Positions 3,659-48,280 of a stretch of 64,000 nucleotides of DNA are shown in pieces. Location: the UHGV virus genome UHGV-1364187; one strand, written 5' to 3'. A program made the position numbers and the translations under genes. The stretch comes from a virus. The notes under the pieces are model-generated. The model saw only the letters and a list, made by a program, of their open reading frames with translations, was not told the DNA's origin and ran no database searches. Position 1 is the stretch's first letter, and each line of letters opens with the position of its first letter.

Positions 3659-3751
3659 ATGGGTTATACTTATTACGAATTAGAATTTAGTTATACATCT
3701 TATAGTAGTGAATACTACATAATACCAGCATACATCGTTAAAGAACATTAA
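3659..3751 (+). CDS. Micro-ORF encoding a 30-aa Tyr/Ser-rich peptide (MGYTYYELEFSYTSYSSEYYIIPAYIVKEH).
   Basis: Strong SD (AAGGGAGAG) 7 nt upstream of the ATG. Sits between a class-B promoter motif and a terminator. C-terminal IIPAYIVKEH matches the recurrent terminal motif. Confidence 0.35.
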   Translation: MGYTYYELEFSYTSYSSEYYIIPAYIVKEH

Positions 3752-3771: not shown

Positions 3772-3830
3772 AGGCTACATTGAAAGTATAAGTGATACTT
3801 TATGTAGCCTATATTCTTTTATTTTTTTGT
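3772..3830 (+). terminator. Rho-independent terminator hairpin (AGGCTACAT...ATGTAGCCT) followed by a T-tract.
   Basis: 9-bp perfect stem followed by ATATTCTTTTATTTTTTTG. Confidence 0.6.
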
Positions 3831-3847
3831 ATATATTCTTTATTTTT

Positions 3848-3888
3848 TAACTTATAAGTAATCTAATTCTATTAAAGGAGGAATAAAT
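3848..3888 (+). promoter_or_regulatory. Conserved upstream cassette A1 (TAACTTATAAGTAATCTAATTCTATTAAAGGAGGAATAAAT), promoter-like plus SD.
   Basis: Near-identical copies sit immediately upstream of the ATGs at 4737, 6393, 7274 and 8178, with a partial copy at 9318. Confidence 0.6.
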
Positions 3889-4659
3889 ATGATTTATGCT
3901 ACATGTTTAAATGAACAAACAAATATTATTAACGAAGACTTTACTATGTCACTACTCATAGAAAATTGCGAGTTACAATCTCAAATTATAATGCTTAATG
4001 AAGGATCTATGGTAGATAAATTTGTGAATTTTCTAAATACTATTAAGAATTTCATATCAAACTTTTTTAAAACTATAATCGATAAATTTAGATCATTAAT
4101 TAATAAAACCCCATCAACATCAACAACTAAAGATACCACATCTTCAAATAAAGATGTAAAGCCAAATAAAATTAATAGTATAACATTATATAGCATCAAT
4201 TTAGATGTAGAACTTGATATATTTAATTTGGTTGAAGAAACAGTAAAATGTAAAGATAAGTTTACAACTGAAAAGTTTGTTAATATTGTAAATAAACATT
4301 TAGAAGGATTTAAATACTCATCATTATCAGATATTAAGCCTGATTTATTTATAAAGAAATATGATTATTATAATAATGATGAAAAATTTAAAGACTCAGT
4401 ATTAAAAGATGTAAAAGATATTAAAAATGATATTAATGACATTATAGGGTTATGTAATAGATATATGACTACATATACAAAATGTTTTGATTACGAGATC
4501 AATAATGTTAAAAGTATTAATGATGAATCTGTTATAAATGAAAGAATTAAATGGATAAATTCATGCAAAGATTTAGTAGTAAAATATCTTACAATAGAAT
4601 TAAATGCATGTACTATCATAATGCAAAATCTTAATAGTGTATTACAGAAAGTTAAATAA
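3889..4659 (+). CDS. Hypothetical protein, member 1 of the MIYATCLNEQ paralog family (256 aa).
   Basis: ORF with a cassette-A SD. The N-terminal ~70 aa are nearly identical to the ORFs at 6393 and 7274. Confidence 0.8.
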   Translation: MIYATCLNEQTNIINEDFTMSLLIENCELQSQIIMLNEGSMVDKFVNFLNTIKNFISNFFKTIIDKFRSLINKTPSTSTTKDTTSSNKDVKPNKINSITLYSINLDVELDIFNLVEETVKCKDKFTTEKFVNIVNKHLEGFKYSSLSDIKPDLFIKKYDYYNNDEKFKDSVLKDVKDIKNDINDIIGLCNRYMTTYTKCFDYEINNVKSINDESVINERIKWINSCKDLVVKYLTIELNACTIIMQNLNSVLQKVK

Positions 4660-4666
4660 AATAATT

Positions 4667-4690
4667 AGAGATACTCTATAGAGTATCTCT
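4667..4690 (+). terminator. Perfect 24-nt palindrome hairpin (AGAGATACTCTATAGAGTATCTCT).
   Basis: Seen directly. Variants at 7201 and 8111 show compensatory changes. Confidence 0.5.
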
Positions 4691-4694
4691 AATT

Positions 4695-4736
4695 TAACTT
4701 ATAAGTAATCTAATTACATTAAAGGAGGAATATATC
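4695..4736 (+). promoter_or_regulatory. Conserved upstream cassette A2.
   Basis: TAACTTATAAGTAATCTAATTACATTAAAGGAGGAAT. Confidence 0.6.
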
Positions 4737-6320
4737 ATGCAAGTTGTTCATGAAACAGTTATTAAAGATATAGTAGATATTCTTTCAGATTTAAAAGATA
4801 ATAAATCATTAGAAAATTTACTCAAAAATAGTAAACGTGGTGGAATGAAATCTATCGCTCAAGCAAGTTCAAATCTTACTTTAACTTATCCATGTCTTGT
4901 GTCTAACTCACTAAGTATTGATAGTGTAAGTATGATTTCTAAAGCTATGGAAAGAAAGAATGCACAAATGATTCAGATGTTACTTAGTGCATATCAATCT
5001 AAAAAACTTAATGGTGATGAAGAATTTGATCCTATCAAATATCTTCAAAAATTCCATAAAAACTTGAATATTGATTATAATGTAAGTGTTGATAGTATCT
5101 TAGATACAGTAGATAAAGTTGTTAAATTGGCAGAATCTGCTGGTATGTATGTTGATACTGTTCAATATATTCCAGAATCACAACAAATTAAATATATTAA
5201 AGAACAATCTAAACAAGATAACACTTTACCAGATATGATTAGTGAATCTAGTGTTGCTTCATATAAGATTTCTAAAAATAATATGTTTGGTAAGACTGTT
5301 GTATTACAAGAGAGAACAGATTACACAAATGGGTTAGGATTTAATGATAATAGAAACGATCCTACACTTTTAAATCCAACTGTAACAAGAGATGGTATAG
5401 AAGATGTAGCAAAAGGTGATGATGAATTTTTATCAATTGCAAAAGACTATTGGAATGTTCAGAATGCAATGAATAAGAATAAATACGATACAAATAAAGA
5501 AAGACGAGAAGCAGAAAAACATGAATTTGAAAAACAGAAAAATAATAGAGAAGTAGAAAGAAATAATAGAGAAAGACAAAAACATGGTCTTGGTATTACT
5601 GTAGATAAAGCTAAATATTTAAATACATCACAACAAACAGCACAAGGAAGAATTGCACAATTACAAAATGTAGATGTAAAGAAAGCTAACGAATTAGTAG
5701 GTACTCCTATTATGGTTACAGTTCATGTAACTAATAAAGAAGGATTACTAGATCCAATTTCATTCTTAATTGCTGTAAAATCTAAGATTTACCCATTAGA
5801 CTCTAAAGATATTATCCAAAGAGTTATCACTAAGAATAAAGATAAGAACTTCTTTGGTAAAATTGTTAAAGTTGCTACTGGGGAAATTTCATTTGTTAGA
5901 GATTTCTTATTTGCAATTGACCAAGCTAAATTAGATTCTTTATCTCAATCTAGAAAAGGAAATTCATCTAAACTTTGGAGAGTATTAGAAAGAATGGCTA
6001 TGAAATCTAAATTCTCTAGAGCTATTGGAAAACAAAATGAATATATGGCTATTACTACTCTTGTAATGTCACAAGAAGAAGTAGAGTATATTAAGAAATA
6101 TGCTAATATGGATATGGAAAAAGAAGCAATAGCTAAAGTAATTGTAGATGCGTATAATCTATTGTGTCTTGTTATTGTAGATGAAACTAATGAAACAGCT
6201 AAGTTCTTATTCAATTCAGATCAAGAATTATTTGAAGAATTGAGCTTCAATCAATTAGAAAGAGAAGCTACAGATGGATCATATAGAAAGATGGTAAATC
6301 TTATTACAAAAATGAGATAA
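4737..6320 (+). CDS. Hypothetical protein of 527 aa with a central Lys/Arg/Glu-rich coiled-coil-like segment.
   Basis: Long ORF preceded by the cassette and followed by a hairpin. Confidence 0.8.
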   Translation: MQVVHETVIKDIVDILSDLKDNKSLENLLKNSKRGGMKSIAQASSNLTLTYPCLVSNSLSIDSVSMISKAMERKNAQMIQMLLSAYQSKKLNGDEEFDPIKYLQKFHKNLNIDYNVSVDSILDTVDKVVKLAESAGMYVDTVQYIPESQQIKYIKEQSKQDNTLPDMISESSVASYKISKNNMFGKTVVLQERTDYTNGLGFNDNRNDPTLLNPTVTRDGIEDVAKGDDEFLSIAKDYWNVQNAMNKNKYDTNKERREAEKHEFEKQKNNREVERNNRERQKHGLGITVDKAKYLNTSQQTAQGRIAQLQNVDVKKANELVGTPIMVTVHVTNKEGLLDPISFLIAVKSKIYPLDSKDIIQRVITKNKDKNFFGKIVKVATGEISFVRDFLFAIDQAKLDSLSQSRKGNSSKLWRVLERMAMKSKFSRAIGKQNEYMAITTLVMSQEEVEYIKKYANMDMEKEAIAKVIVDAYNLLCLVIVDETNETAKFLFNSDQELFEELSFNQLEREATDGSYRKMVNLITKMR

Positions 6321-6323
6321 AAA

Positions 6324-6350
6324 AGAATAAGGGATATAATCCCTTATTCT
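6324..6350 (+). terminator. Hairpin (AGAATAAGGG-ATATAAT-CCCTTATTCT).
   Basis: 10-bp stem. Confidence 0.5.
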
Positions 6351-6392
6351 TAACTTATAAAGTAATCTAATTCTATTAAAGGGGGAATAAAT
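6341..6392 (+). promoter_or_regulatory. Conserved upstream cassette A3, with a 1-nt insertion.
   Basis: TAACTTATAAAGTAATCTAATTCTATTAAAGGGGGAATAAAT. Confidence 0.55.
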
Positions 6393-7191
6393 ATGATATA
6401 TGCAACATGTTTAAATGAACAATCAAATGATATCATAAATGAGGATTTTACTATAGAATTGTTAATAGAGAATTGTAACTTACAATCTGAACTTATAATA
6501 TTATCAGAAGGTGCACTTGTAGATAAATTTATAAATGTCTTAAAAACAGTTAAAAAATTCATTTCAAATTTCTTAAAAACGATACTTAATAAATTTATAG
6601 AACTAAAAAATAAAATTTTCAAATCATCACCAAAATCAGATGTTAGAAAACAAGACTCTACAAATAAATTTATAAGAAAAACTAAATCTGTTAAATATGT
6701 TTGTGTAGACAGATCAAAGAAGATAGAAATATATGACATATATCATCAGATAGTTAAAAAAATATAGATAAATACTCTGAAGAAAAATTTTTTGAAGTAG
6801 TAAATTCAAATTCAAAAAATTTAACGATAAATTCATTATCTGATATAACAAAAGAATTATTTTTAACAAAACAAGAAAAGACGTATAATAGAAAAATAGA
6901 GCAATTGTGGCTAGTGGCATGAATGATAGTTGTACAAATACATTTATATCTTACATAAAAGATAGTATGGAAGATATAAATAAAAGTTTTGATAACTGGA
7001 TAGATTATGCTAATATACATTCAAAACGTGTTAACTGGACAGATGAGCAATTATCTAATAATATCATATGGATAAATAAAATTAAAGATTTAACTGTAAA
7101 ATATTATTCAACATTATTGCAAGCGTATAGTATAGAACTAAATGAAATACATATAGCTAAAAAAACTATTGAGAATGATAATGATTTATAG
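6393..7191 (+). pseudogene. Decayed member 2 of the MIYATCLNEQ family, fragmented by frameshifts.
   Basis: The ORF 6393..6767 is the conserved N-terminal domain. The following out-of-frame segment (DKYSEEKFFEVVNSNSKNLTINSLSDITKELF) and the ORF 6907..7191 (IIWINKIKDLTVKYYSTLLQAYSIELNE) align with the middle and C-terminal parts of the 3889 protein. The first break lies in an A7 run. Confidence 0.6.
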
Positions 7192-7200
7192 AAATATATT

Positions 7201-7224
7201 AGAAATACTCTATAGGGTATTTCT
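7201..7224 (+). terminator. Hairpin AGAAATACTCTATAGGGTATTTCT.
   Basis: A variant of the 4667 palindrome in which the paired stem positions changed together (G->A with C->T). Confidence 0.5.
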
Positions 7225-7229
7225 AATAT

Positions 7230-7273
7230 AACTTATAAGTAATCTAATTATTCTATTAAAGGAAGAATTATAA
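7230..7273 (+). promoter_or_regulatory. Conserved upstream cassette A4.
   Basis: TAACTTATAAGTAATCTAATTATTCTATTAAAGGAAGAAT. Confidence 0.55.
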
Positions 7274-7996
7274 ATGATTTATGCAACATGTTTAAATGAA
7301 CAAACGTCTATATTCAATGAAGATTTTGTGACAAATTTATTAATGGAAAATGTACAAATGCAAACTACAATATTAGTTGAAGAAAGTTCTATTATAACAG
7401 AGAATGCTATTAGTGATTTTGTTGGTAAAGTTATTAATTTTATTAAAGAAACTATATCTAAATTTAGAAATTGGATAGTGTCAAAAATTAGTAGTATTAA
7501 AAAAACAATAAAACCAAGATCAAATACATCATCAAATACATCATCAGATAAAACAGTAGAATTGTGGGATGTTAAAGATAATATTTATGAAATAGAAACT
7601 ATAATAGAAGATTCTACAGAAAAAATTTCTAATAAAATATTAAAAAACTATAGTAATATATCAAGTGAAGAATTAGATATTCTTGCTAAAGATATACAAA
7701 AAGCATATTGTGGAACAGAAAATCCAACTTATGAACTATTTATTGTTAAAAAGAGTATTAAATATGACAATACATTAATAAACAAAACAATAACAGAATT
7801 AGATAAAAAATTTGATTATATGAAAGATGTATCAAAGAAGGTAAATATGTCTGGCAATACTATAATAGGAGATTTAAATACATATCTTAAAAAAATAGAT
7901 GGTATAAATAGAAATAATCCTAACGTTCATATGAATACAGATTATATCGATTCTTCAACAAATAGACATAATGCTCAAGAGATGAAAAAAATATAA
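7274..7996 (+). CDS. Hypothetical protein, member 3 of the MIYATCLNEQ family (240 aa) with a divergent C-terminus.
   Basis: ORF behind a cassette. The N-terminal domain is conserved. Confidence 0.8.
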   Translation: MIYATCLNEQTSIFNEDFVTNLLMENVQMQTTILVEESSIITENAISDFVGKVINFIKETISKFRNWIVSKISSIKKTIKPRSNTSSNTSSDKTVELWDVKDNIYEIETIIEDSTEKISNKILKNYSNISSEELDILAKDIQKAYCGTENPTYELFIVKKSIKYDNTLINKTITELDKKFDYMKDVSKKVNMSGNTIIGDLNTYLKKIDGINRNNPNVHMNTDYIDSSTNRHNAQEMKKI

Positions 7997-8110
7997 ATTT
8001 AGCAATAAGAGATTTTCAAAATATGATTCAAGTTGCAACAAATATATCCAATTTAATATTGAAGGCTATAACTATGTGCATTAATCATAACTCATCATTA
8101 TAAAATAATT

Positions 8111-8132
8111 AGAGATACTATAGAGTATCTCT
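8111..8132 (+). terminator. Hairpin AGAGATACTATAGAGTATCTCT.
   Basis: Palindrome. Confidence 0.5.
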
Positions 8133-8138
8133 AATTTA

Positions 8139-8177
8139 ACTTATAAGTAATCTAATTCTATTAAAGGAGGAATTATA
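8139..8177 (+). promoter_or_regulatory. Conserved upstream cassette A5.
   Basis: TAACTTATAAGTAATCTAATTCTATTAAAGGAGGAATTATA. Confidence 0.6.
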
Positions 8178-9197
8178 ATGGAAAGATATTATGAGCCTGT
8201 ATATATGCAAGCTATTAAAGAACATTTTGATCTTAGAGATAGAGAAACACGAAAAATTCTCCTTTCTCTTACAGAAGCAGAAGGCGGTAAAGTTTTAGAA
8301 AGTTTAACTGGTAGACTTTACCAGATGATTATTGATAAAGTAGACGATATTGACTTTGGACTTATTCCTCAATCTAAGGGTGATATTACTAAAGTTGATG
8401 GGGTGGAAAAGCTTTTAGAAGCTTTACAAATTATTTCAGATATTATGGTATCTGCACATCAAGATAAAGGTATTGAGATTGTTCAAACTGTTATTGATTG
8501 TATCAAAAATATTCAAGTTAGAACAGATCTATTCCAAAAAGCTTATGCTTTAAATCTTGAAATTCCTATTACTATTTATAATACAATGGTATTAGCTGTA
8601 TTTGATGCTACATCATATATGATTGTAAATACAATAGACTTTATTAAAGATCCTGGAACAAATTCTTTTGAAGCTGTTGTTGTGAATAATAATATCAAAA
8701 AGACTAAACAATCTTTAGTTATGAAGAATATTATTAGTTTTAATGAAGCTTGTAGAAAAGGTGATATTGATAAAACAATTCAATCTATTATTGATGCTAA
8801 AGCTAGAGGATTTGCAGTATCAACTATTGGAGTATCTATAGTTGCAGCTGGAACATTATTAACTTTAATTATACCTATTATTAGAGAATTGATTTACTTA
8901 TATTATCATGCTAGAGTATCTATGAACGATTATCTTACAGTACAGGCAGATCTTATTCAGATGAATATTACTGGTCTTGAATTAAATGATTCTATCGATC
9001 AAGAAAAGAGAGAAAGAATCATTAAGAAACAAGCTAGTATTGCTGAAAGATTACGTAAACTTGCTAATGTAATTGAAGTTAAAGAGAAGAAAGCTGAGAA
9101 TAAAACTATTTCAACAATCAATAGTGAAAATAGACAATATAAGTTCAACGAAATCCAAGATGAATTACCAGATTCTGCTGTTGCTTCATTATTCTAA
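8178..9197 (+). CDS. Hypothetical protein of 339 aa with one predicted transmembrane segment (AVSTIGVSIVAAGTLLTLIIPII).
   Basis: ORF behind a cassette. Contains an LTEAEGG motif. Confidence 0.8.
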   Translation: MERYYEPVYMQAIKEHFDLRDRETRKILLSLTEAEGGKVLESLTGRLYQMIIDKVDDIDFGLIPQSKGDITKVDGVEKLLEALQIISDIMVSAHQDKGIEIVQTVIDCIKNIQVRTDLFQKAYALNLEIPITIYNTMVLAVFDATSYMIVNTIDFIKDPGTNSFEAVVVNNNIKKTKQSLVMKNIISFNEACRKGDIDKTIQSIIDAKARGFAVSTIGVSIVAAGTLLTLIIPIIRELIYLYYHARVSMNDYLTVQADLIQMNITGLELNDSIDQEKRERIIKKQASIAERLRKLANVIEVKEKKAENKTISTINSENRQYKFNEIQDELPDSAVASLF

Positions 9198-9202
9198 AAT
9201 TT

Positions 9203-9233
9203 AGAAGTGAATAGATATACTCTATTCACTTCT
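9203..9233 (+). terminator. Hairpin AGAAGTGAATAG...CTATTCACTTCT.
   Basis: 12-bp stem. Confidence 0.5.
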
Positions 9234-9317
9234 AATTTAATCACGTTTCTTTTTACTTCTATAAACATATAAATAATGCTATAAGCAAAAACTAACCTTA
9301 TTAAAGGAGGAATTATA

Positions 9318-10463
9318 ATGGTATTTAATAGTATTTTACAAGAAAATACTCATTTTGATCAAGAAGAAGTTTGTGAAGCTGTTACTGGATATGAAGGATC
9401 AGTAGGTGCTACACAATCTCTTATTGAAGCAGCAGAAATGAGCCAAACTATTTTTGAAGAACTTATCAATATTGATTTCGCCGAAGCAGCTCTTAATCAC
9501 AATATTGCTGGTGTTACTGAAAGTACAGTAGAAGCATTAATTGAAGCTGAGGGAGAAGGCGGTCAAAGTATTGGTCAACGTATTGTAGATGCAATCAAAA
9601 AATTATGGAGTATGTTTACAAACTTCGTAACTAATGTTGTAAATACAATTAAAACATATTTAGCTAGAGACCTTAAGAAATTAGTTGAAAATTCAACTCT
9701 TAAATCTCCAGAAGAATTAGCTAAAATTACTTTAAAGAAATATACAAAATATGACTTTAGTCAATTTACTAAACGTTCATCTTTAAGTGTCCCTAGTTAT
9801 GAAAATATGGACAAAGAAAAAATTACAAAAGCTCAAAAAGATCTTAAAGATAAGAACTTTACAGCAGGACTTATTAAATCATTTTCTGGTATCGATGCTT
9901 TCAGTATCAAAGACTTCGTAGATAGAGCTAGAAAAGCAGCTACTATTAGTCAAGAAAATGTAAAAGTAAGTGAAGTTATTAGCGATGCTAAAGAAGTTCT
10001 AACAACTAGTGGTAGAACTTTAGAAGCTATTAAATCACAAAAGAAAGCAGCAGATAAAACTTATAAAGAAGCTGTTTCTAAAGTAAAAACAAAAAGATCA
10101 GAAGTTAGAAAACATGGCGAATATGTTGCTAACGATCCATCTGGAAATACAACTAAAGTTAAAGTAGACAACAAAGATACATATGCAGCAGGTTGTGCTT
10201 GTACATTATCTTATATGAAAGTTGTACACAACATTGAGATGGCTGATATTAAACTTATGCAACAATTAGCACAAAAACAAATTGCACAAGCTAAAGCTAT
10301 CTTCATTAAAGCTACTGGTAAAAAAGCAAAAGAAGAAGCTACTAATGAATCAGCACTAGTATATGAAGAAGCATTATTAGAAGCATGTGAATATGAAACA
10401 GAAGTTGACATGGATGAAATTTCTCAAGAAGTTTCAGACAATGGAAATGAAGAAATTGCTTAA
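9318..10463 (+). CDS. Hypothetical protein of 381 aa, distantly related to the 10488 product.
   Basis: ORF with a partial cassette (AAAGGAGGAATTATAATG). Contains ALIEAEGEGG and SLIEAAE motifs. Confidence 0.8.
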   Translation: MVFNSILQENTHFDQEEVCEAVTGYEGSVGATQSLIEAAEMSQTIFEELINIDFAEAALNHNIAGVTESTVEALIEAEGEGGQSIGQRIVDAIKKLWSMFTNFVTNVVNTIKTYLARDLKKLVENSTLKSPEELAKITLKKYTKYDFSQFTKRSSLSVPSYENMDKEKITKAQKDLKDKNFTAGLIKSFSGIDAFSIKDFVDRARKAATISQENVKVSEVISDAKEVLTTSGRTLEAIKSQKKAADKTYKEAVSKVKTKRSEVRKHGEYVANDPSGNTTKVKVDNKDTYAAGCACTLSYMKVVHNIEMADIKLMQQLAQKQIAQAKAIFIKATGKKAKEEATNESALVYEEALLEACEYETEVDMDEISQEVSDNGNEEIA

Positions 10464-10487
10464 TTCAATTTAAAGGAGGAATTATCA

Positions 10488-11558
10488 ATGATTTATGATA
10501 AATTTACAAGCGTTATAGAAGGATCTACAGATTACGTAGCTGATATTACTATGGATTCAGTAGAAGAAAGTGCATACGAACCTACTATGGAAGGAACATT
10601 AATGCATCTTTTAGAAGCTGAAGAAAACTGGAATCAAATCCAAGAAGCCATCGCATTTTCAGAATTAAAAGGATTCATGGAATCTGGTGATCCTGAATAT
10701 GTATTAGAAGCAGAACAATCAGAAGGTATGTTCACTACAGTAATTAACTGGTTTAAGAGCATGTTAGCTAAGATTGCTGCTATCTTAAAGAAATTCGTAA
10801 ACTATATGGCTAGTAAAGTAGCTTCAGATAAACAATTCATTAAAAAATTTGAATCAATTAAAGGAGACTTAGTTATTCCTAGTGGATTTAAATTCAAAGG
10901 ATTCAACTTTAGTTTCAATTATGATTTAGCTACAGGTAACTCTAAAATGACAAGTATTATTGATTCAACTTTCAATAGAGCACCTGGAAACAATAGTGCT
11001 AGTGAAATTAAATCTGTAACAGATCAAATTAAATCTGGTAAAAAATCTTTCTCTGCCAAATTACGTGCAGCAGCTTTAGGAAAATCAGGTAATATGGAAG
11101 AAAAAGAATTTAGAACTGAATTAAAGAAAATGTTCAGATCAAACTCTGCAACACCTACACAAATTTCAGTTTCTAAATCAGATATTGATAAATACTTTAA
11201 TTGTGTATCAAGTCATAAAGATGCTGTTAAAATGGCAAAAGATAACTTAAAGAAATTTAAGGATATTACAAACAGTAGCATCGATATGGTAAAAACTACA
11301 AAAGAACATATTAAAGATACAAAAGATAAGAAAGATCGTTCAGCGTATATGACATATTGTAACATGAAAATTTCTGCTTACAAAGAGAAATATACAATCT
11401 TATCTCGTGTAAATGGTGCTCTTATTGATGCACTTAATCAACAAAATCGTCAAGCAAAATCTGTTCTTTATGCTATCAATGGTAGACAAAAGACAAAATT
11501 TGATGAATCTACTATCGTAAGTGGTGGTACATTCTTTGACAATATTGTAATGGATTAG
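10488..11558 (+). CDS. Hypothetical protein of 356 aa.
   Basis: ORF with SD AAAGGAGGAATTATCAATG. Contains HLLEAEENW and YVLEAEQSEG motifs. Confidence 0.8.
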   Translation: MIYDKFTSVIEGSTDYVADITMDSVEESAYEPTMEGTLMHLLEAEENWNQIQEAIAFSELKGFMESGDPEYVLEAEQSEGMFTTVINWFKSMLAKIAAILKKFVNYMASKVASDKQFIKKFESIKGDLVIPSGFKFKGFNFSFNYDLATGNSKMTSIIDSTFNRAPGNNSASEIKSVTDQIKSGKKSFSAKLRAAALGKSGNMEEKEFRTELKKMFRSNSATPTQISVSKSDIDKYFNCVSSHKDAVKMAKDNLKKFKDITNSSIDMVKTTKEHIKDTKDKKDRSAYMTYCNMKISAYKEKYTILSRVNGALIDALNQQNRQAKSVLYAINGRQKTKFDESTIVSGGTFFDNIVMD

Positions 11559-11560
11559 TA

Positions 11561-11600
11561 AAAATATAGATACACTCTTAATGGGTGTATCTATATTTTT
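11561..11600 (+). terminator. Hairpin AAAAATATAGATACAC...GTGTATCTATATTTTT.
   Basis: 16-bp stem flanked by A and T tracts. Confidence 0.6.
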
Positions 11601-11647
11601 CATTGGTTAACTTCTTAATAATATATTCTATAAAGGAGGAATTTAAT

Positions 11648-12673
11648 ATGTATAATCTTAATAATATAAATTTTAAGAATGTACAAAGTAATATTTCATT
11701 TACATCAAACGTAAATGAAAGTTATACATCATCAGCATTATCATTTATGCAATCTATAAATGAAGAGAACAACGAAAACTTAGCAACAATGGCAAAAAAT
11801 ATAGTAAACGGAATGAATATTACAGAAGCTGCTAATCTATTCTGCAAATCAACTGAGATTATTATTGATAAATCTACAGATATGATGGGTAAAATGATTA
11901 ATTCATTTACTAAAGAATTAGATCAGTATTTCTCAGAAAGAAAACAGTTTATCAGTAATATCGAAAGTGTAAAAGATAGAACAGATGAATTAGCGAAGTC
12001 TGCTCTTACTATAGAAGGATTCTTCTATACAGAAATGAAACAACCAAATATATTACTTGCATCTGAATTTAAAGAAGGATATTCAGATTTATTAAGTAAA
12101 TCTCCAGATAGTGTATTCAATGGGTTGTCTAGAAAATATATGGATTCTTATCTAGATAAGATTAGAGCTAAAACTATTTTATTAGATGGTCAAGTTTCAT
12201 ACAAACTGTTTAGAGATAAAGTATTTGGTTTCTATAGAAATAATACAACTAAAGAAACCATTGCAGTTTATAAAGAAGCTCAGATAGCAGATATTATTAG
12301 AAAGTATCTTGATCATAAAGTATATATAGAAAATCTTAACGAATTATATGAAGATATTCTATCTCAAGCATCAGAAGTAAAAAGATGTATAGAATTATTA
12401 ACAGAAGATCTATGTACTATGGAAACTATTAATAATGTAGTATATGGTAAATCAAATAAATTTGTTGATATGAATGGATTAGTTACAGAAGGATTTAATG
12501 AAGCTATATCAGCAATAACTAAAAAGAAAATGACATTAGTTCAAGATTTCATGGCTATATATTTATTATTAGTATCAGATAAGATTAGTGCTATGAAATC
12601 ATCTATTAACCAAAATACTGTTCTTTTAGATAGTTTTTACAACATGATTATGTTAGGAGAGGGTGAACAATAA
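11648..12673 (+). CDS. Hypothetical protein of ~341 aa, with the start moved to the SD-supported ATG.
   Basis: AAAGGAGGAATTTAATATG. The ATG at 11585 in the ORF track lies inside the terminator. Confidence 0.75.
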   Translation: MYNLNNINFKNVQSNISFTSNVNESYTSSALSFMQSINEENNENLATMAKNIVNGMNITEAANLFCKSTEIIIDKSTDMMGKMINSFTKELDQYFSERKQFISNIESVKDRTDELAKSALTIEGFFYTEMKQPNILLASEFKEGYSDLLSKSPDSVFNGLSRKYMDSYLDKIRAKTILLDGQVSYKLFRDKVFGFYRNNTTKETIAVYKEAQIADIIRKYLDHKVYIENLNELYEDILSQASEVKRCIELLTEDLCTMETINNVVYGKSNKFVDMNGLVTEGFNEAISAITKKKMTLVQDFMAIYLLLVSDKISAMKSSINQNTVLLDSFYNMIMLGEGEQ

Positions 12674-14439
12674 TGGTATTTTACACAGATTATGTATTAG
12701 AAGAAACTCAATATATTATTTATGAATTTAATAGAATGATGAATAATGCAATTACAAAAGCTAAACTTGATGAAGCTGATATTATTATGAGGGCTAAAGA
12801 AGTGTTATGTGAAAATGAAGTGATATTAGAGGGAGACTTTATAGATAAGATTAAAACTAATCTATTTGGTGCTCAGACAACTGGGAGGTATGATTTAGTA
12901 AAAGAGAAACTAATCAAAAATGTAAACAGATTGCAAACGCCACAACAAGTAGATCTTATTATGGCATCTATTCCAGGAGGTGTACAATATGTAAAAAATC
13001 AGATGGAAACGCATCCAGAATATGAAAAACAAATGAAAGAATATATCAAATGGTTACAAGGAGATTTTAAAATCTATCTTAAAGGAAAGAAAAAAGAATT
13101 ACAACATTCTATAGCAGAAACTGGGTTAGAGTGGGATGAATATCTAGAAATGATTGTACAAGAAAGTGAACTTGGTGACAGAATTATGTCACATATCCCT
13201 GGTGGAACATTACAAACTGGTAGATTTGATTTATTAAGACCTAAATTATTAAAATTAGCTAAGAAAGCTAAAGATATGAAACGTATCCAATATCTAAGAA
13301 AAGATGCATCTATTGCAAAAAGAACACTTCAGACATTAAAGAAAAATAAACCAGAATTTAAAGATCAAATAGATTCACATCTTAAATGGTTAGATACAGA
13401 ATATAAACAAGCATTGAACGATAGAGCAAAAGAAATTAGAAACTCTGTAAATGAAGCATCATTCGAAGAAATCTCACTAATTCAAGAAGCTGCTAAAGAT
13501 ACTATTGTTAAAGCAATAGATTGGTTAATCAATAAGATTAAAGAACTATGGGCTAAATTTTTTGGAAGAAAAGCAGATAGAGATTCTAAAGCTAAATGGT
13601 TGAAGGATAATAGAAATGCTATTCTAAACAACGGATTCAAAGGATCTAAAGAAATGCCAGAATTCTGGAAATATGACTCATTGAATGATAAAGTTGTCAA
13701 TTCATTTCCAAAATTTGATTATGCTTCTATGAAACCTAATTTATCATCTGATGATTCATTCATTAATGCTTACTTTAAAGATTTATATCAGGATGGTAAA
13801 TCATATGTAGATGTATTAAAAACAAAACTATATGGAGAAAAGAATGCAGTATTAAAAGATGGTCAAGTTCCAATAAAGAATATGTTTGATTTCTGTACTA
13901 ATGCTTATGTACAAAAAACTAGAGCATTAGAAAATATTCATAATGCATGTGTATCAGCTGCAGAACAATTTAAAAATGATATTAATAATGGTAAAGTAAA
14001 AATCGAAGAATCATCTGTAGTGTTTGAAAGATATTTCTATAGTTATCTTATGGAATCTGTTATATATGAAGCTGATCTTGCTAAAGATACTCAAACAGAT
14101 CAACAACAAACACAGACAACAGACACAAAAAATACAAATAATAATACTACAACAAACAATACACCTACACCAGATGATCAAAAGAAAGCTGAAGCTAATA
14201 AATCTAAAGTTGAAAATGATAGAGCGGTAGAAGCTCAAAAACTTATATCAAGATATTTATCAATCACTAATAATATTAAAGGTACATTGATGAAATATTT
14301 GGAAGATAAATTTGATACTTATTTCGCCGTATTAATGCAACATGCAAAAACTAATGGTGTAAAAACAAAACCAGAAGCCGCTAAGAAAGAAGACAATACA
14401 GAACAAAATAATACAAATAAAGAACAACAAACAAAATAA
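12673..14439 (+). CDS. Hypothetical protein of 588 aa with internal repeats (SIPGGVQYV and SHIPGGTLQTG) and a Thr/Asn/Gln-rich low-complexity tail.
   Basis: ORF whose start overlaps the upstream stop (TAATGG). SD GGAGAGGGTG. Confidence 0.8.
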   Translation: MVFYTDYVLEETQYIIYEFNRMMNNAITKAKLDEADIIMRAKEVLCENEVILEGDFIDKIKTNLFGAQTTGRYDLVKEKLIKNVNRLQTPQQVDLIMASIPGGVQYVKNQMETHPEYEKQMKEYIKWLQGDFKIYLKGKKKELQHSIAETGLEWDEYLEMIVQESELGDRIMSHIPGGTLQTGRFDLLRPKLLKLAKKAKDMKRIQYLRKDASIAKRTLQTLKKNKPEFKDQIDSHLKWLDTEYKQALNDRAKEIRNSVNEASFEEISLIQEAAKDTIVKAIDWLINKIKELWAKFFGRKADRDSKAKWLKDNRNAILNNGFKGSKEMPEFWKYDSLNDKVVNSFPKFDYASMKPNLSSDDSFINAYFKDLYQDGKSYVDVLKTKLYGEKNAVLKDGQVPIKNMFDFCTNAYVQKTRALENIHNACVSAAEQFKNDINNGKVKIEESSVVFERYFYSYLMESVIYEADLAKDTQTDQQQTQTTDTKNTNNNTTTNNTPTPDDQKKAEANKSKVENDRAVEAQKLISRYLSITNNIKGTLMKYLEDKFDTYFAVLMQHAKTNGVKTKPEAAKKEDNTEQNNTNKEQQTK

Positions 14440-14443
14440 AATA

Positions 14444-14478
14444 AACTAGAAGAGTTTAATTACTCTTCTAGTTTTTTA
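14444..14478. terminator. Bidirectional terminator between convergent genes (AACTAGAAGAG...CTCTTCTAGTT).
   Basis: 11-bp stem with an A-tract upstream and a T-tract downstream. Confidence 0.65.
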
Positions 14479-15656
14479 CTGCTTCTAAATGTAAGCATAC
14501 ATTCTGATACAAAATATTCTCCTTGATGTTGATATACTTCTAATTTTTTAGATAATATAAAATCACCATTTAAAGACTTATATTTTTCAGCATTGTCTAC
14601 AATATAACGCTTATTTGGTGTTATTATAGAACTATCAATATTTGATTTAGAGATAGTTAGAGCATGACTCTCACCTTCTATACTGTGTCTAATATTATCT
14701 AATATTCCGAAATTTTCATATGGAACTCTTACATTAATCTTTCTATCAGTTGAGTTTTTTGATTTATTAATTGCAATATTTACATCTTTAGTTTTTCCAC
14801 TTGATGATATTCCGTGTAATAAGTTAAAGTTTTTCTCTGCACTGTTATTGGTATACATCCTTGTATAGTTTGCATCTACTGGAACTATATAAGCTTTCTT
14901 TTCTTCGTCTAAAACCATTCCTTCTACATATGCACCTTTTTTATCTGGTTCGATTATATTTATATAAACTGTATTATTAGGTTCATCTGCAGTTTCTACT
15001 CCTTCTCCAGAAGAACTTAGCAGATATGTTCTATCAAAGTCCATAAAATATCTATAATTACTATCATAGAATGTATTTCTATCATTAAGATAATCTAGCA
15101 TATCTCTTATAGTATCTAAAGGTGGTACTAATAATTCATCATAATGAACATCATTCATTGTATCTTCAAATACTAAATCACCAACATCTTGTGTAGCAAT
15201 CAAAGCCATACATCTATTAGTTACATTTCTGTATACATTATTGAATGTAACTTTATTTTTATTAGATGATCTCAAACTTATCATTCCAATTTTTACTTTT
15301 CTTAGAACATCATCTCTATCCTCAGCTTCTTCATTAGCATATTCTATTTCATGTGTATAACTAATATCGTCTAGAGAATAATAAGAAAATTCATCGTTAA
15401 TATAATCTTCAACAAATGTGTTATCTTTAACAGCAAACTTTCTTACTATAAGTATCATAGTATTATCTACTTTTTGTGTAATAATCTTATCCATTAACTG
15501 TTTACCTATTCCTAGTTGCATAATTACTATTGGCATACTATTATCATCATACGATCTGTCTATAATCATACCTAATATTTGTTCTATCGGAATAGGAGTT
15601 AATTCGGTTCCATCATTCATTTTAAGTTCTACTTGATATTTATATTCTACTACCAT
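14460..15656 (-). CDS. Hypothetical protein of 398 aa.
   Basis: Long ORF with SD AAGGAGGATT upstream. Confidence 0.75.
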   Translation of the reverse strand: MVVEYKYQVELKMNDGTELTPIPIEQILGMIIDRSYDDNSMPIVIMQLGIGKQLMDKIITQKVDNTMILIVRKFAVKDNTFVEDYINDEFSYYSLDDISYTHEIEYANEEAEDRDDVLRKVKIGMISLRSSNKNKVTFNNVYRNVTNRCMALIATQDVGDLVFEDTMNDVHYDELLVPPLDTIRDMLDYLNDRNTFYDSNYRYFMDFDRTYLLSSSGEGVETADEPNNTVYINIIEPDKKGAYVEGMVLDEEKKAYIVPVDANYTRMYTNNSAEKNFNLLHGISSSGKTKDVNIAINKSKNSTDRKINVRVPYENFGILDNIRHSIEGESHALTISKSNIDSSIITPNKRYIVDNAEKYKSLNGDFILSKKLEVYQHQGEYFVSECMLTFRSSKKLEE

Positions 15657-20314: not shown

Positions 20315-23300
20315 CTATCTTTTAAATAATCTCTTAGTGAGATCTATAGCAGTATTTAATGTATTTCTAGATATAGTAAGATTATCAGGATTATATGGAG
20401 TATCTCTTATATATTCACTAAAGTTAAATGTATTATCTCTAGTCCCCACATACTTCATATATTTATTGAAATCATTTAATATTCTAGCTCTAATATCTAC
20501 AAATTCTTTACGTTCCTGCTTTGTCATTTTATTTATTTTCTCTTCTATTCTAGTATTAATAAACCATAACTTACATAGTTCATATTTCATTCCATCTATA
20601 TTGCCTACTTTCTCATATGACATTAGTAATTTATGTGATTTATTAAACTCTTGTTGAAAATCTATCTTCTTATTAAGAATTAAATCACCTTTATCGTTAA
20701 TAGATATCTTTGATTCAGCTTCTAACAATGAAGATTCTTTCCTTTTACTTTTAATAACTTCAACTAATCTATCCGATGCAATTTTTCTATTATGAGAATT
20801 GAATTCTAATAAAGGATTCCATCCTAAAGCTTTAATAATATTCTCATCTTTTTCAACCTTAAGTCTATTTGACCAAGCTGTTTCATAATGTTCATTATAA
20901 GCAACTTCACCATTACATCTTTTAGTATAATAATCAAACCATTCTTTTATGGTTACATTATCATTTAATATATCTTCATCATCCATTACTGTTATAGTAT
21001 CAGCAATTTCATCTGGATGATAAAATCCATCCTGTGATGTTTCCCAAGGAATCTCTGTTTCTTCTAGAATAATATTTTGTTTATAATCAAATTCCACATT
21101 ATCTAAATAATCTCTCATTTTATTATTCTTTCCTATTTTGATTTTTACTCCATGTCTCATTGAAGCTACACATATAGCATTACATAATTTATTCATATAC
21201 TTTTTATCACATTTATTGAACCATCTTACTGCTTGTATAACATGTTCTTTATCAATAAGAGGATATTTTCTTTCTTCTGGAATTCCAAAGTCGTCATCTT
21301 TAAGAGCATTTCTTTCTTTAGTTGAAAGATCAGCTTCTGTTAAATAATCACATACATTTATTCCAGTAATATCATCTGTTTTAGATAAGTCTTCACATTC
21401 ATCATCAGAATGTAAATAATTTGATAATAGATGAGATGATTCGTTGTGTATATATGCATGTATACTAATATCTTTATTATACTGTAACTCTCCATCTAAT
21501 GTAATATAATCTGTAAGTTTGCTTCCATATGTAGGAATATTATACATTCCTAATTCAATAATTCTCTTTTTGATATTATCAGCTAATTCTTGTTTATATT
21601 CATCTTTACAGTGATTAAAACAATTAGCGATAATTTGTATTACATCATTTGGTGTTTGTAGTGGATATTTTCTTTGTTCTGGTAGACCATATACTTCTAT
21701 AACTCTATCAAAGTTCTTATATAATTCTCCACATTTATAACAAATTCCAGTATTATTCCAATCATCTTCTGTATATATAAGTGCATCACATTTATTACAT
21801 TTATAATGACTACCAATTGACATTTCTTCTGTTATTGCACATTCTTCATTTATAGAAGATTTCATCTTATTTTTTACTATATTAGCAATAATGTTCATAT
21901 CTTTAATCATATCATCTACTTTAAATCCACTTGGTTTAAATCCTATGTCATTTTTCTCTGATAAATTTATAATATATTTACTAGCCCATTCTAGTCCATC
22001 TTTAGTATGTTTTCTATGAAGCTCTTTTTCAAATACTTCTATAGATTGAAGACATTTTTCCCAATCGGATTTCTTATTACTCTTTAATGCTTTTCTAATA
22101 GCTGAATTTGGATCTGGTAAATTTGGACTAAAGAATTCTCTTACTTCCATAATATTAGCTTCATTTAATACAGTTCCATCTTTATTGATTTTCTTAATCC
22201 ATTTCCAATTCCATCTATATAATTCAGCTTCATATTCATTATCAGGACCATATTTATATTTCATACCCTCTTCGTGAGCATCTTCAACCTTAATATCTCC
22301 TATATATTTTAATTTTACACTATTAGTTATCCATACTTCATTAGTAATATTACAATCTGGTACTTGATAAACTGATGGTTTTACTTGTTTTATATTATCC
22401 ATAACTATTTCGTGTACACATAATGTCTTACCTTTAAGATTCATACTCATTGCTGTTAAACATCCGTTTATACTTGTAGAACAGCATACTCTACATGTAG
22501 TATTATCTTCGTATCCATTTTTAGTAAGAAAATTATCTGGTACTATTGGATTTAATATAACTCCATCCATATTTGTTGAAGATACAAAGAATAGTTTTTT
22601 ATAGTCACATTTTGTTTGTCTATGTTCTTTTGGTACTCTATGATCTTCTACCCATTCTTCCGCATATACTTGTCGTTGTATTGTATTTAATTCAATATAA
22701 GACTCCATAATATTTCTTTTAAGTTTTCTTATATTACTTTTTACTTTAGATTCTTTATAATCATTTATCTTCCCTTCATATACTTTATATACAACATTAG
22801 AAGTTGCAAATTCTTGTGGTCTTACTAATGCTGAATCTTTTTGATTTACATTTACCCCACCAAGCTTTAACATAGAATCAACAAATTGAGAACAAAACAT
22901 TTTATCATCTCTATTGATTGGTTTATTTAATAATACTCCGAATAATCCAAGAATACTATATGAATATTCTTTAATATGATCTATAAAGTATTGGATCTGT
23001 TGTTTTATTTTTTCTATGTTTATCTTTGGTATTAATACACAGAATACTCCAATATTAATATTACCAAATTTCTTTTTAAACATATCGAAAGACTCTTTAA
23101 CAAATCCATCGAAATTAAAACTAAATATATTATTCATCTTTGCATCAAATGATAATGATACATGTGTGTAATCATCTCCAGTAAAAGCTCTAATAGTTTT
23201 AGACATTATAGAACCAGTAGTAGTCAATAATATATATACTGGTGATAATTCATCATTATTATTAGATTCATTAATAGTAACTTCTTGTGTTAAATCTAGA

Positions 23301-23323
23301 AATCCTACATTATCTAATATCAT
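20315..23323 (-). CDS. Large hypothetical protein of 1002 aa. N-terminal LRAT/NlpC-P60-like permuted papain-fold domain, with two copies of a ~45-aa 'PE(E/Q)RKYPL...VIQ..FN.C' module.
   Basis: YTHVSLSFD (His) followed ~60 aa later by MFCSQFVDSML (the Cys nucleophile, like NCEHFV in LRAT-family proteins). Internal duplication YGLPEQRKYPLQTPNDVIQIIANCFNHC and FGIPEERKYPLIDKEHVIQAVRWFNKC. Confidence 0.4.
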   Translation of the reverse strand: MILDNVGFLDLTQEVTINESNNNDELSPVYILLTTTGSIMSKTIRAFTGDDYTHVSLSFDAKMNNIFSFNFDGFVKESFDMFKKKFGNINIGVFCVLIPKINIEKIKQQIQYFIDHIKEYSYSILGLFGVLLNKPINRDDKMFCSQFVDSMLKLGGVNVNQKDSALVRPQEFATSNVVYKVYEGKINDYKESKVKSNIRKLKRNIMESYIELNTIQRQVYAEEWVEDHRVPKEHRQTKCDYKKLFFVSSTNMDGVILNPIVPDNFLTKNGYEDNTTCRVCCSTSINGCLTAMSMNLKGKTLCVHEIVMDNIKQVKPSVYQVPDCNITNEVWITNSVKLKYIGDIKVEDAHEEGMKYKYGPDNEYEAELYRWNWKWIKKINKDGTVLNEANIMEVREFFSPNLPDPNSAIRKALKSNKKSDWEKCLQSIEVFEKELHRKHTKDGLEWASKYIINLSEKNDIGFKPSGFKVDDMIKDMNIIANIVKNKMKSSINEECAITEEMSIGSHYKCNKCDALIYTEDDWNNTGICYKCGELYKNFDRVIEVYGLPEQRKYPLQTPNDVIQIIANCFNHCKDEYKQELADNIKKRIIELGMYNIPTYGSKLTDYITLDGELQYNKDISIHAYIHNESSHLLSNYLHSDDECEDLSKTDDITGINVCDYLTEADLSTKERNALKDDDFGIPEERKYPLIDKEHVIQAVRWFNKCDKKYMNKLCNAICVASMRHGVKIKIGKNNKMRDYLDNVEFDYKQNIILEETEIPWETSQDGFYHPDEIADTITVMDDEDILNDNVTIKEWFDYYTKRCNGEVAYNEHYETAWSNRLKVEKDENIIKALGWNPLLEFNSHNRKIASDRLVEVIKSKRKESSLLEAESKISINDKGDLILNKKIDFQQEFNKSHKLLMSYEKVGNIDGMKYELCKLWFINTRIEEKINKMTKQERKEFVDIRARILNDFNKYMKYVGTRDNTFNFSEYIRDTPYNPDNLTISRNTLNTAIDLTKRLFKR

Positions 23324-24421: not shown

Positions 24422-24543
24422 AATAAACGACTCCTTTAAATTTATATTATACTTTATTACACTAATATAATATATGATTATATATTTGTACTTTTACAAA
24501 TATATAATAAAAGAGAAGACTATTTGTCTTCTCTTTTATTATT

Positions 24544-25425
24544 TTATTTTTCACAATATGGATCATATTCAATTCCACGTAAAGCATGTTTCAATCCTAA
24601 TGGTAATAAATCAGTATCTAAATTAATACATTCTATATTTTTAATATGTGGTCTTAATGAATTGATGAATGGGTTAGATCTTCCTCCATCAATATACATA
24701 AATATTTCTCTAGAAATACATTTATAATTACGATTCATAATACAAACCATTTCATTTATATACTTAATCATATCTCTATCAGATTCAAAAATTTCATACC
24801 ATTTTGGAATGTATATTTTTGGCGATAACTCTGCTTGTTCATCTAATGTGATTTGATGTGCATATACAACTCCAAGTTTTAATATATCATTATCATCTTC
24901 TTTAAAGTCTTAAACAACTTTATCATAATCATCATATATAATCATATCAACAGTAGTATTTTCTGATTTAAGTTTATTGATTTCCTTTTCACTTCCAACA
25001 TATGTAGTATTTCCAGTAACATTAGATACAATTTTTAATAATTTAGTACAAGAATTTGTAATAATACATATATTATTAAAGATGATGATATCTCTTATAT
25101 GTTGTAATTTCAGATTTATATCTGTTTGATTATTTGATTTTTATTACAATATAATTTGTCTCTTCTTTGTATATATACTGTAATGAACAGTTAATAACTC
25201 CAATAATACAGTCTTATGGGTCATTCTTGGTGACATAATTAACATATTTTGATTATGTTTGTATGAATAAAATATATTATTCTTAAATGTATTAATATTA
25301 TATGGATATTATCCATATGTATGTAATTCTACTCTTCTAAATAGAGATAAAAAACAATTTAAATTGTCTTCTCCATCTTTTAAAATCTTTTCAAATATTT
25401 TTTTTTCTGAATCGCTAATTTTCAT
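24544..25425 (-). pseudogene. Disrupted gene carrying an in-frame TAA and frame breaks.
   Basis: The start MKISDSEKK at 25425 has a good SD, but the frame ends after 39 aa. The downstream frames encode ...GSEKEINKLKSENTTVDMIIYDDYDKVV-stop-DFKEDDNDILKLGVVYAHQ... and continue into the ORF 24544..24771. No ORF of 60 aa or more spans 24772..25420. Confidence 0.45.
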
Positions 25426-25664
25426 AATGACACACTCCTCATTTTTCTTTTTTCTTCTAATTCTTTTATCTTATTATTTGTAGGATTTGTGATACTTTCA
25501 TATACATTTTTGGCATAATTTTCTTGCCAAAATTTTTCTCTTTTCCAAAAACAAACATTTTTTACATTATTATATATTTGGATACATGTCATAACCTCTA
25601 CTGGTCCCCACTGACCATCAGCTGCACGATCATTACACCATCTTGTATATTCTTTAAATGTCAT
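25422..25664 (-). CDS. Hypothetical protein of 80 aa.
   Basis: ORF with SD AAGGAGGTG. Confidence 0.6.
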   Translation of the reverse strand: MTFKEYTRWCNDRAADGQWGPVEVMTCIQIYNNVKNVCFWKREKFWQENYAKNVYESITNPTNNKIKELEEKRKMRSVSL

Positions 25665-26468: not shown

Positions 26469-27179
26469 TTAATTTGTAGTAGTTGTAGTATTAGTTATAT
26501 TATCACTATATGTCCATTCTCCGATTTTGATTATGTTTTTAGGACTTAGGTCATCTTTAATTTCTTTTAATGTTTCTGGAGTTACAGCTTCATAAACACT
26601 CATATCTTTAGAGTTTGATTTCATTTCAACTATCATTCTATCTAATGTGAGATCACAATATTCATCTACCCAATCTACAATGAAATAGAATCTATTATTA
26701 ATAACTCTATTCTTTTTATCTAAGAAAATACCAATTACAATCGGATCTTTTTCTCTTCTTTGTTTCTCAACTTTCTTTTCATCCTTTCCAGTATAATCTG
26801 TATATATTACATACAATTCATCAAAGATATCTTTTGCAATTGCTATTTTTTCTACAACATCATCTGGAATGTCTCTTTCAAATCTTTCTAACTCAATAAC
26901 TTTTACTACTCTATCTCCGACAATATCAATATATTCAGATACATCTTCTCTTTGAATATATTTAGTAAATCCATTTGCAATTGCTTTTCTTTCTTTTTCT
27001 ACACAATCAATATAGAAAATAAGACGCTTTAATGCTTCTTTTTGTCCTGTAATCTTATACTTTTTTACTAATGATAGACATTGATTATAGAAAGCGTCCA
27101 ATTTTTCATCATCAATATTTTCTTTCTTTGCTTTAAGTGTTACAAAATATTCTGTTGCTGTAATTTTATTCTCTTCCAT
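26469..27179 (-). CDS. Hypothetical protein of 236 aa.
   Basis: ORF with SD. Confidence 0.7.
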   Translation of the reverse strand: MEENKITATEYFVTLKAKKENIDDEKLDAFYNQCLSLVKKYKITGQKEALKRLIFYIDCVEKERKAIANGFTKYIQREDVSEYIDIVGDRVVKVIELERFERDIPDDVVEKIAIAKDIFDELYVIYTDYTGKDEKKVEKQRREKDPIVIGIFLDKKNRVINNRFYFIVDWVDEYCDLTLDRMIVEMKSNSKDMSVYEAVTPETLKEIKDDLSPKNIIKIGEWTYSDNITNTTTTTN

Positions 27180-47232: not shown

Positions 47233-47288
47233 ACGTCTCTCCTTTCTGATAAAAAATAAAGAGCGATATTAATATCGCTCTTATGTTT

Positions 47289-48071: not shown

Positions 48072-48280
48072 TTTATAATTCCTCCTTAAATATCTATAAT
48101 CGATTATTCTGATGTTATCGATTAAGTAGTATTTTAATGTATTCATTATTATGATACATATAACTTGTTTCGTTATAAAAAACTATTGGTGGTACTAACT
48201 GTTCAACTAAATGTCTATGTTCTAATATATGGTATATATTCATGCATTTTAAAAATCATTTTATACCAATTCAATCTATA

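Follow-up and report, generated by a model that had tools for sequence, protein, structure and literature searches.

Introduction

In phage T4 diverse internal proteins have in common just a capsid-targeting sequence (CTS) that is conserved (PMC3012670), and in SPN3US N-terminal propeptides are cut off by a Glu-specific prohead protease (PMC10052503). Studies on T4-like phages have shown that promoter/terminator repeats, known as promoter early stem-loops (PeSLs), mediate the shuffling of open reading frames (ORFs) (PMC2839356, PMC4122927), and the late promoter of the jumbo phage AR9 has been defined experimentally as AACA-(6N)-TA/G (PMC5312081). The locus described here, from the virus genome UHGV-1364187, can be compared with each of these systems. 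The stretch of that genome that was analysed, 64,000 nucleotides (nt) long and referred to throughout as the window, carries three ORFs starting at 3889, 6393 and 7274, named c1, c2 and c3, all of which begin with the decapeptide MIYATCLNEQ. Taken as a whole they look like a new family of giant-phage paralogues, which would be late or virion accessory proteins and whose copies are lost by homopolymer slippage; the frameshifts themselves appear ordinary and call for no new mechanism.

The window has a guanine plus cytosine (GC) content of 26% and the exact c1 protein is also found on a contig of 256,505 bp (ENA ERZ27229639:k119_250412). Genes flanking the copies match AR9/PBS1-group jumbo phages of Bacillus in tblastn searches and 'virion structural protein' families in PHROG. 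The window is part of a 256.5 kb uncultivated AR9/PBS1-like jumbo phage.

Three paralogues and their shared N-terminus

The initial annotation had proposed a paralogous family of three ORFs with a common N-terminal domain, and tblastn within the window bears this out. Over a domain of ~74 amino acids (aa) c1 and c2 show 70% identity (expectation value (E) 2e-30), c1 and c3 47% (E 5e-15) and c2 and c3 42% (E 4e-12); no fourth sequence in the window matches the family N-terminus by tblastn. The description of ~70 aa as 'almost identical' was, however, too strong, as identity is complete across c1-c3 only in the first 10 residues, and c3 resembles the other copies in its N-terminus only. It is also true that there are three copies, but they are not strictly in tandem, for a gene encoding a 527-aa virion protein (4737-6320) parts c1 from c2.

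The closest relative of c1 is c2 and vice versa, yet the two are just 40% identical. Because of this low identity, and because c3 is similar only at the N-terminus, the c1-c2 duplication is lineage-specific and old, and the recent duplication that had been suggested finds no evidence in its favour; the N-terminus appears instead to be conserved across phages by constraint, as it is in the members found in other phages. Divergence of the paralogues followed by loss, which was part of the same suggestion, agrees both with the divergent C-terminal regions and with the lesions in the copies.

Two broken copies

The middle copy, c2, had been reported as split yet still alignable with the full length of c1, and this was confirmed. 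Addition of one A to the A7 run at 6756-6762 makes c2 read ...QIVKKNIDKYSEEKFFEVV, and when c2 is rebuilt with both -1 shifts the product of 266 aa aligns end-to-end with c1 (40% identity over 261 columns, E 6e-46). The break is thus as described, but the stretch between the two annotated ORFs is not unframed, since 6758-6919 is an open segment in the -1 frame. All three segments match the family hidden Markov model (HMM) in consecutive order (Table 1).

To call only one copy decayed was an undercount. An HMM of the C-terminal 75 aa, trained solely on members from other phages, has a single match among 1455 six-frame fragments of the window (7972-8100, E 7.7e-8), and this lies in the -1 frame past the stop of c3. 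The conserved helix that ends every intact homologue (..V/Y..K...I.A....C..HN..) is missing from c3 as annotated. The extended c3 would end at 8103, 4 nt before a terminator hairpin, like other genes, whereas the unextended ORF would leave a gap of 110 nt to that hairpin. Hence c3 is frameshifted as well, which brings the number of broken copies to two and that of the lesions to three. For annotation this means that the three short ORFs of 6393-7191 are one broken gene and that the 240-aa ORF of c3 is a truncated gene of 276 aa.

The family in other phages

Word-indexed protein searches yielded few members and the family was revealed only by an exhaustive HMM search, which returned 16 proteins with N-termini such as MIYATC[LI]NEQ, MIYGTILTEQ, MIYAQCLNEE and similar. 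Complete members among these are ~270-340 aa long, and the family as a whole, with the window copies, spans ~250-340 aa. The family was unmatched in 50,697 phage records (megablast with the locus, tblastn with c1), degenerate DNA patterns for the leader gave 0 matches in IMG/VR and JGI metagenomes, and a search of IMG/VR with the gp215-like neighbour gave no relative. The family appears to be previously undescribed and, as far as these sequence searches reach, is seen only in uncultivated AR9/PBS1-like jumbo phages of gut metagenomes.

The contigs that carry members derive from related phages, with flanking-gene identities of 89% (major head protein), 62-68% and ~49%. Copy number and position were found to vary widely among them. 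Contigs L007/L008 have five intact copies (267-320 aa in L007), of which four follow the g214 homologue and the fifth follows the g215 homologue, L004 has four intact copies, L021 at least three intact copies and L011 three copies in tandem. In L002 and L019/L020 one member lies directly 3' of the major head gene. L005/L006 have one member, inverted, between the homologues of 14460 and 15722 (a 400-aa gene in L005 is the homologue of window 14460-15656 by tblastn) and another after the homologue of 12673. The homologues and copy-number variation in relatives that the initial annotation had proposed to look for therefore exist, with 1 to at least 5 copies at about six different intergenic sites, most of them intact. 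Such variability in copy number and position fits mobile accessory cassettes and a fast-turnover accessory locus.

Two disrupted members were observed outside the window. In the member at L005:2787-3699 (identical in L006:2635-) a G6 run (L005:2835) is the site of a +1 frameshift, present in two independent samples, which parts the leader MINGMILREQSNILEEGG from the body IDLSTQLFMENMNLHIQ...; G/C runs of at least five are rare in the window, with 3 in 64 kb. The other, P0014 (L019:294-1172, L020:241-1119), lies between two near-identical hairpins and is interrupted in frame by a TAG at codon 63, a position that is Trp in most aligned members and Gln in the database translation. A TGG-to-TAG nonsense mutation would explain this codon, and recoding of the stop is less likely.

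Regulatory cassettes

Five consecutive genes (c1, 4737, c2, c3 and 8178) each have a palindromic hairpin followed by TTAACTTATAAGTAATCTAATTCTATTAAAGGAGGAAT upstream. The box AACT-TATAAG-TA, which fits the AR9 late promoter, precedes c1, c3, 4737 and 8178, and the spacer of the c2 box is 7 nt. Indels and changes to the Shine-Dalgarno (SD) sequence were found in the cassettes of c2 and c3 only, GGAGG having become GGGGG in c2 and GGAAG in c3. The promoter-containing 20-mer is restricted to this locus within the window, and the box upstream of P0009 in L005 (AACA-TACAAG-TA) is an exact AR9 late consensus. On sequence grounds each copy appears to be an autonomous late-type cassette, in which a terminator hairpin and a promoter-like box (AACT-N6-TA) are followed by the conserved leader with its SD.

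A further observation concerns contig L014 (SRR2192801; L014:1-335 against window 7855-8160 and 4716-7316), in which the 3' end of c3 is fused to the 4737-6320 gene. The crossover falls inside the repeated terminator/promoter cassette. The junction may reflect recombination or tandem duplication through the cassette, but it may equally be a chimera of the assembly, so that recombination at the cassette is no more than suggested.

Decay, error or recoding

Every break is a single-base difference in an A run, a classic site of error, and it could be supposed that homopolymer errors of sequencing or assembly have broken genes c2 and c3 that are intact in the real phage. The same alleles, however, came from at least six samples and different assemblers, under contig names of short-read style (k119/k127 MEGAHIT-style, SPAdes NODE). 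Truncated products of exactly these sequences (124, 94 and 240 aa) are present on 6-8 contigs. Another five contigs, assembled from other samples with other programs (SPAdes, MEGAHIT), have the same split into 124 aa + 94 aa, and four of the five are 100% identical to the window over their entire 0.7-3.2 kb. Run lengths are identical in all six assemblies, L014 retains an unchanged A7-TATAA site of c3, and there was no intact allele among the matches listed. The ~370 other A/T runs of at least five in the window break no gene: a scan of all such runs found no other gene joined by a ±1 shift. One candidate, at 25442-25453 (-), turned out to be an ordinary overlap of genes at ATGA that has an SD of its own, and was dropped. 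Because the same broken alleles occur in independent samples and assemblers and no other gene is broken, sequencing error is very unlikely and intact copies in the real phage are scarcely credible; this phage lineage carries the lesions as fixed changes in its DNA. The initial annotation had placed the breaks in A runs and raised the question of artefact, which the recurrence of these alleles in at least six independent assemblies answers.

If the breaks are real, then they are quite likely to be decay. Ordinary slippage during replication would have mutated accessory copies that are redundant; c2 and c3 would then be pseudogenes of young age, or would yield truncated products at most, and c1 would be the functional copy. 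The indels and altered SDs confined to the cassettes of c2 and c3 count towards decay. The alternative, that the breaks are expression signals (-1 ribosomal slippage on A-AAA-ATA, RNA-polymerase slippage or phase-variable switches), appears improbable, and it has to be weighed against several features of the locus that count against simple decay. The same -1 correction is needed at each of the three lesions, which have the in-frame context A-AAA-ATA in common, and such a pattern could also arise from bypass during expression; the frames after the lesions are wholly open (45, 98 and 37 codons) in DNA of 22-23% GC. In addition the sampled population is clonal, with no single-nucleotide polymorphisms. 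Recoding would further be favoured by the 11-mer AAAAAAATATA, followed by an immediate stop at two sites, by the restriction of the lesions to this family, by the rarity of the AAA-ATA codon pair in window genes (28 observed against 48.6 expected) and by the split of a related member at a very rare G6 run. With AAA in the P-site, A-AAA-ATA permits -1 slippage of a single tRNA, but it departs from the canonical X-XXY-YYZ heptamer, and no stimulatory RNA structure was found in the 70 nt 3' of the slip sites when compared with shuffles (z -1.6, +0.35 and -0.06). Moreover the shifts are not conserved, because the regions concerned are read in one frame in most homologues, and A7-ATA also occurs in frame at 7889-7897 within c3, at a point where shifting would cut the protein short. 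Other members of the family have other types of lesion (+1 at G6, nonsense TAG), and the constancy of the run lengths and the lack of an intact allele noted above also speak against a switch. Programmed recoding is therefore not supported.

The distribution of long A runs likewise points to decay. Five of the seven sense-strand runs of A7 or longer in coding sequence of the window lie within c2 and c3, where long A runs match chance expectation; the other genes analysed have zero such runs against 1-2 expected, and c1 is without any run of six or more. Selection against homopolymers is evident at ~9 nt in many bacteria (PMC1088944), and the runs of A7, A5 and A7 fall short of this bacterial slippage threshold. 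A related possibility, rated a shade lower even than expression signals in general, is that c2, c3 and the G6-split member of L005/L006 are contingency genes that become full length only after slippage or a reversible change of run length. If that were true, a jumbo phage of the uracil-DNA type would gain stochastic, variable packaged effectors with a common capsid-targeting leader.

The leader peptide and a probable virion-associated role

The leader MIY(A)TC(L/I)NE(Q) is kept in the window copies and, with few substitutions, in other phages, and the remainder of the proteins shows ~20-40% identity. The codons of the leader differ synonymously (ATT/ATA/ATC, GCT/GCA, TTA/CTA, AAT/AAC), which indicates that the peptide itself is what is conserved. 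Motifs LNE, INE and LIE fall within the first 26 residues. Of the 56 window ORFs 6 have the pattern ^M[IVL][YF]x2-7[LIVM]xE, as compared with 2 among 477 internal-Met controls, and the six ORFs (c1-c3, 9318, 10488 and 12673) are all in the late module on the + strand at 3889-14439. Three of these encode unrelated late proteins (9318-10463, 10488-11558 and 12673-14439), which begin MVFNSILQE, MIYDKFTSVIE and MVFYTDYVLEE respectively; shared by otherwise unrelated late proteins, the pattern could be a common N-terminal signal. The ORF at 51755-52480 (-) has MIFGRIINE shortly after its called start.

An AlphaFold2 model of c1 was all or mostly helical (predicted local distance difference test (pLDDT) 63, predicted template-modelling (TM) score 0.57). 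The best folds in BFVD were an AR9 'Virion protein' and structural or head proteins of phiKZ-like phages (probability 0.99, E ~0.01, TM 0.28-0.47), weak matches from a query of pLDDT 63; Foldseek against the PDB gave generic helical bundles only, and the 268-aa AR9 'Virion protein' was not located within AR9 150-248 kb. Pfam and PHROG had no informative match for c1 or c3, c3 having one marginal, unannotated PHROG (E 0.004). The products are probably late, virion-associated proteins, because their neighbours are AR9 virion-protein homologues, their promoters are of late type and their folds weakly resemble jumbo-phage virion proteins. The invariant leader MIY(A)TC(L)NE(Q) together with LLxEN may then be a prohead-targeting or protease-processed propeptide, and the products may be packaged, possibly injected virion-internal proteins whose fast turnover reflects host interaction. 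The initial annotation had put forward an arms-race locus of anti-defence or host-range genes; the context points to late, virion-associated products, and by analogy with the T4 internal proteins an injected anti-defence role is possible.

Two negative results weigh against this reading of the leader and products. No T4-type prohead protease was found with Pfam/PHROG among the window proteins scanned (about a third), and neither the internal proteins of T4 nor the inner-body proteins of phiKZ nor g216/g217 of AR9 could be shown to be homologous in sequence; comparisons of the family with AR9 g215-g217 and with window neighbours by hhalign and hmmsearch were not significant. A 1002-aa protein at 20315-23323 (-), with a ClpP/crotonase-like N-terminal region (phrog_1128) and DUF6582, was noted as a candidate prohead protease/scaffold fusion. 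It is also conceivable that the products are late cytoplasmic accessory (moron-like) proteins and that the first 10 codons serve translation or control at the level of the mRNA. No member has a functional annotation or domain match, the leader follows a conserved 5' untranslated region, which makes an RNA-level role conceivable, and the fold matches depend on a low-confidence model. The leader codons, however, vary synonymously with the peptide unchanged, three unrelated late proteins of the module begin with a similar pattern, and the insertions are always beside head or virion genes, so that a cytoplasmic role seems rather unlikely. The full combination, in which late and probably virion-internal cassette proteins with a T4-CTS-like leader undergo birth and death, is narrowly preferred. 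If the leader has been read correctly, AR9-like jumbo phages would have in MIYATCLNE(Q) their first candidate for a capsid-targeting tag. On that condition it would single out proteins that are packaged, perhaps injected, and that turn over in step with the defences of the host, and it might be tried as a means of bringing foreign proteins into such capsids.

Genomic neighbourhood

The gene order of the window parallels AR9 from g208 (RusA) to g216, and the copies are interleaved with homologues of the AR9 virion proteins g213-g216. AR9 has no gene at the g213/g214 or g214/g215 junctions, whereas the window has c1 and c2-c3 there. The gene at 4737-6320 is also matched in Staphylococcus, Listeria and Fusobacterium jumbo phages (tblastn). 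The positions of the features are collected in Table 1.

Table 1. Positions of the three family members, their lesions, their regulatory cassettes and the two neighbouring virion-protein genes in the window
Feature	Position	Strand	Description
c1 regulatory cassette	3849..3888	+	AACTTATAAGTAATCTAATT (AACT-N6-TA), then conserved 5' leader and SD AAAGGAGG
c1, intact member	3889..4659	+	256 aa; leader MIYATCLNEQ, LLIEN motif, amphipathic helix, S/T/N/K-rich linker, C-terminal helix
Terminator hairpin after c1	4663..4694	+	Palindromic; followed by promoter cassette of next gene, 4696-4715
Homologue of AR9 g214 'minor virion structural protein', phrog_23804	4737..6320	+	527 aa; between c1 and c2, unrelated to both
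Terminator hairpin and c2 cassette	6323..6392	+	Promoter spacer +1 nt (AACTTATAAAGTA, 6351-6371); SD now GGGGG
c2 segment A, frame 0	6393..6761	+	Residues 1-123; annotated ORF ends 6767; family HMM 1-136
c2 first lesion, A7 run	6756..6762	+	-1 frameshift; GTT AAA AAA ATA TAG
c2 segment B, -1 frame	6761..6895	+	45 codons, NIDKYSEEKFF...TYNRK; family HMM 138-182, E 3e-11
c2 second lesion, A5 run	6892..6896	+	-1 frameshift; AGA AAA ATA
c2 segment C, second -1 frame	6895..7191	+	98 codons and stop; family HMM 191-282, E 9e-11
Hairpin after c2 and c3 cassette	7199..7273	+	Promoter motif 7230-7249; leader with 3-nt insertion; SD weakened to GGAAG
c3 frame-0 part	7274..7990	+	Residues 1-239; annotated ORF ends 7996
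c3 lesion, A7 run	7985..7991	+	-1 frameshift; ATG AAA AAA ATA TAA
c3 C-terminal segment, -1 frame	7990..8103	+	NINLAIRDFQNMIQVATNISNLILKAITMCINHNSSL and stop; homologous to C-termini of intact members elsewhere
Terminator hairpin after c3 and consensus cassette of next gene (8138-8157)	8107..8177	+	
Homologue of AR9 g215 'virion protein', phrog_23545	8178..9197	+	26% identity, E 3e-17

Several other observations were made in the window. The probable major head protein is encoded at 49952-51682 (-), where a fragment in L002 is 89% identical and matches phrog_20655; no family member follows it, unlike in L002 and L019. Just upstream of the locus, at 3659-3751 (+), is a Tyr-rich ORF of 30 aa (MGYTYYELEFSYTSYSSEYYIIPAYIVKEH) with a strong SD and its own hairpin (3773-3812), which is a gene in the source record. 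About 0.8 kb at 24540-25320 (-) holds short interrupted ORFs flanked by intact genes and may represent a gene in decay; no other part of the window of any size lacks a long ORF. Likely selfish elements were found at 26469-27179 (-) (transposase-like, phrog_10081, E 7.5e-69) and 28584-29996 (-) (endonuclease-like, phrog_15137, E 1.5e-38), and two long ORFs of one strand, 46631-47479 and 47289-48146 (-), lie in different frames with an overlap of ~190 nt.

Comparison with known systems

The T4 internal proteins (IPI, IPII, IPIII and the variable T-even internal protein locus) resemble the present family in being multi-copy, divergent proteins with a very short conserved leader, 10 residues in the case of the T4 CTS, whose genes vary between relatives and stand in a late/head context. 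The T4 CTS is MKTYQEFIAE, ending in I-A-E, and the rule for the T4 protease is (L/I)-x-E; the leader here ends in L-N-E, with I-N-E and L-I-E to follow. There is no sequence similarity between the two groups, however, and the proteins described here exceed those of T4 in size (250-340 aa), are helical and end in a helix that is conserved. The inner-body and ejection families of phiKZ-like phages (SPN3US gp53/gp54) offer a second likeness, in that they too are paralogues in the head or virion module of a giant phage encoding its own RNA polymerases. The cleavage motif in phiKZ and SPN3US is A/S/G-x-E, which was not seen here; homology could not be demonstrated, and the present copies differ in having individual promoters and terminators.

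Closer in position are g216 and g217 of AR9, the former annotated 'virion protein', which share with the family a syntenic neighbourhood, a similar size, helical structure and an acidic N-terminus followed by an amphipathic helix. They differ in showing no significant similarity to the MIYATCLNEQ family (hhalign probability <7%). In AR9 (L018 34452-36528) g216 and g217 were found to be paralogous to one another (E 1.7e-8), forming a duplicated helical pair at the syntenic locus, and the window gene at 10488-11558 is related to both (E 2e-4).

In its organisation the locus resembles the PeSL cassettes of T4-like phages, where repeats of a stem-loop and promoter flank accessory ORFs that are inserted, deleted and swapped between relatives. 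Here a conserved cassette of ~40-70 nt stands before five consecutive genes and family members occupy about six intergenic sites. The PeSL promoters are early and of sigma-70 type, whereas the box found here is of the AR9 late type. The locus would be a clean non-T4 example of accessory genes moving as terminator/promoter cassettes.

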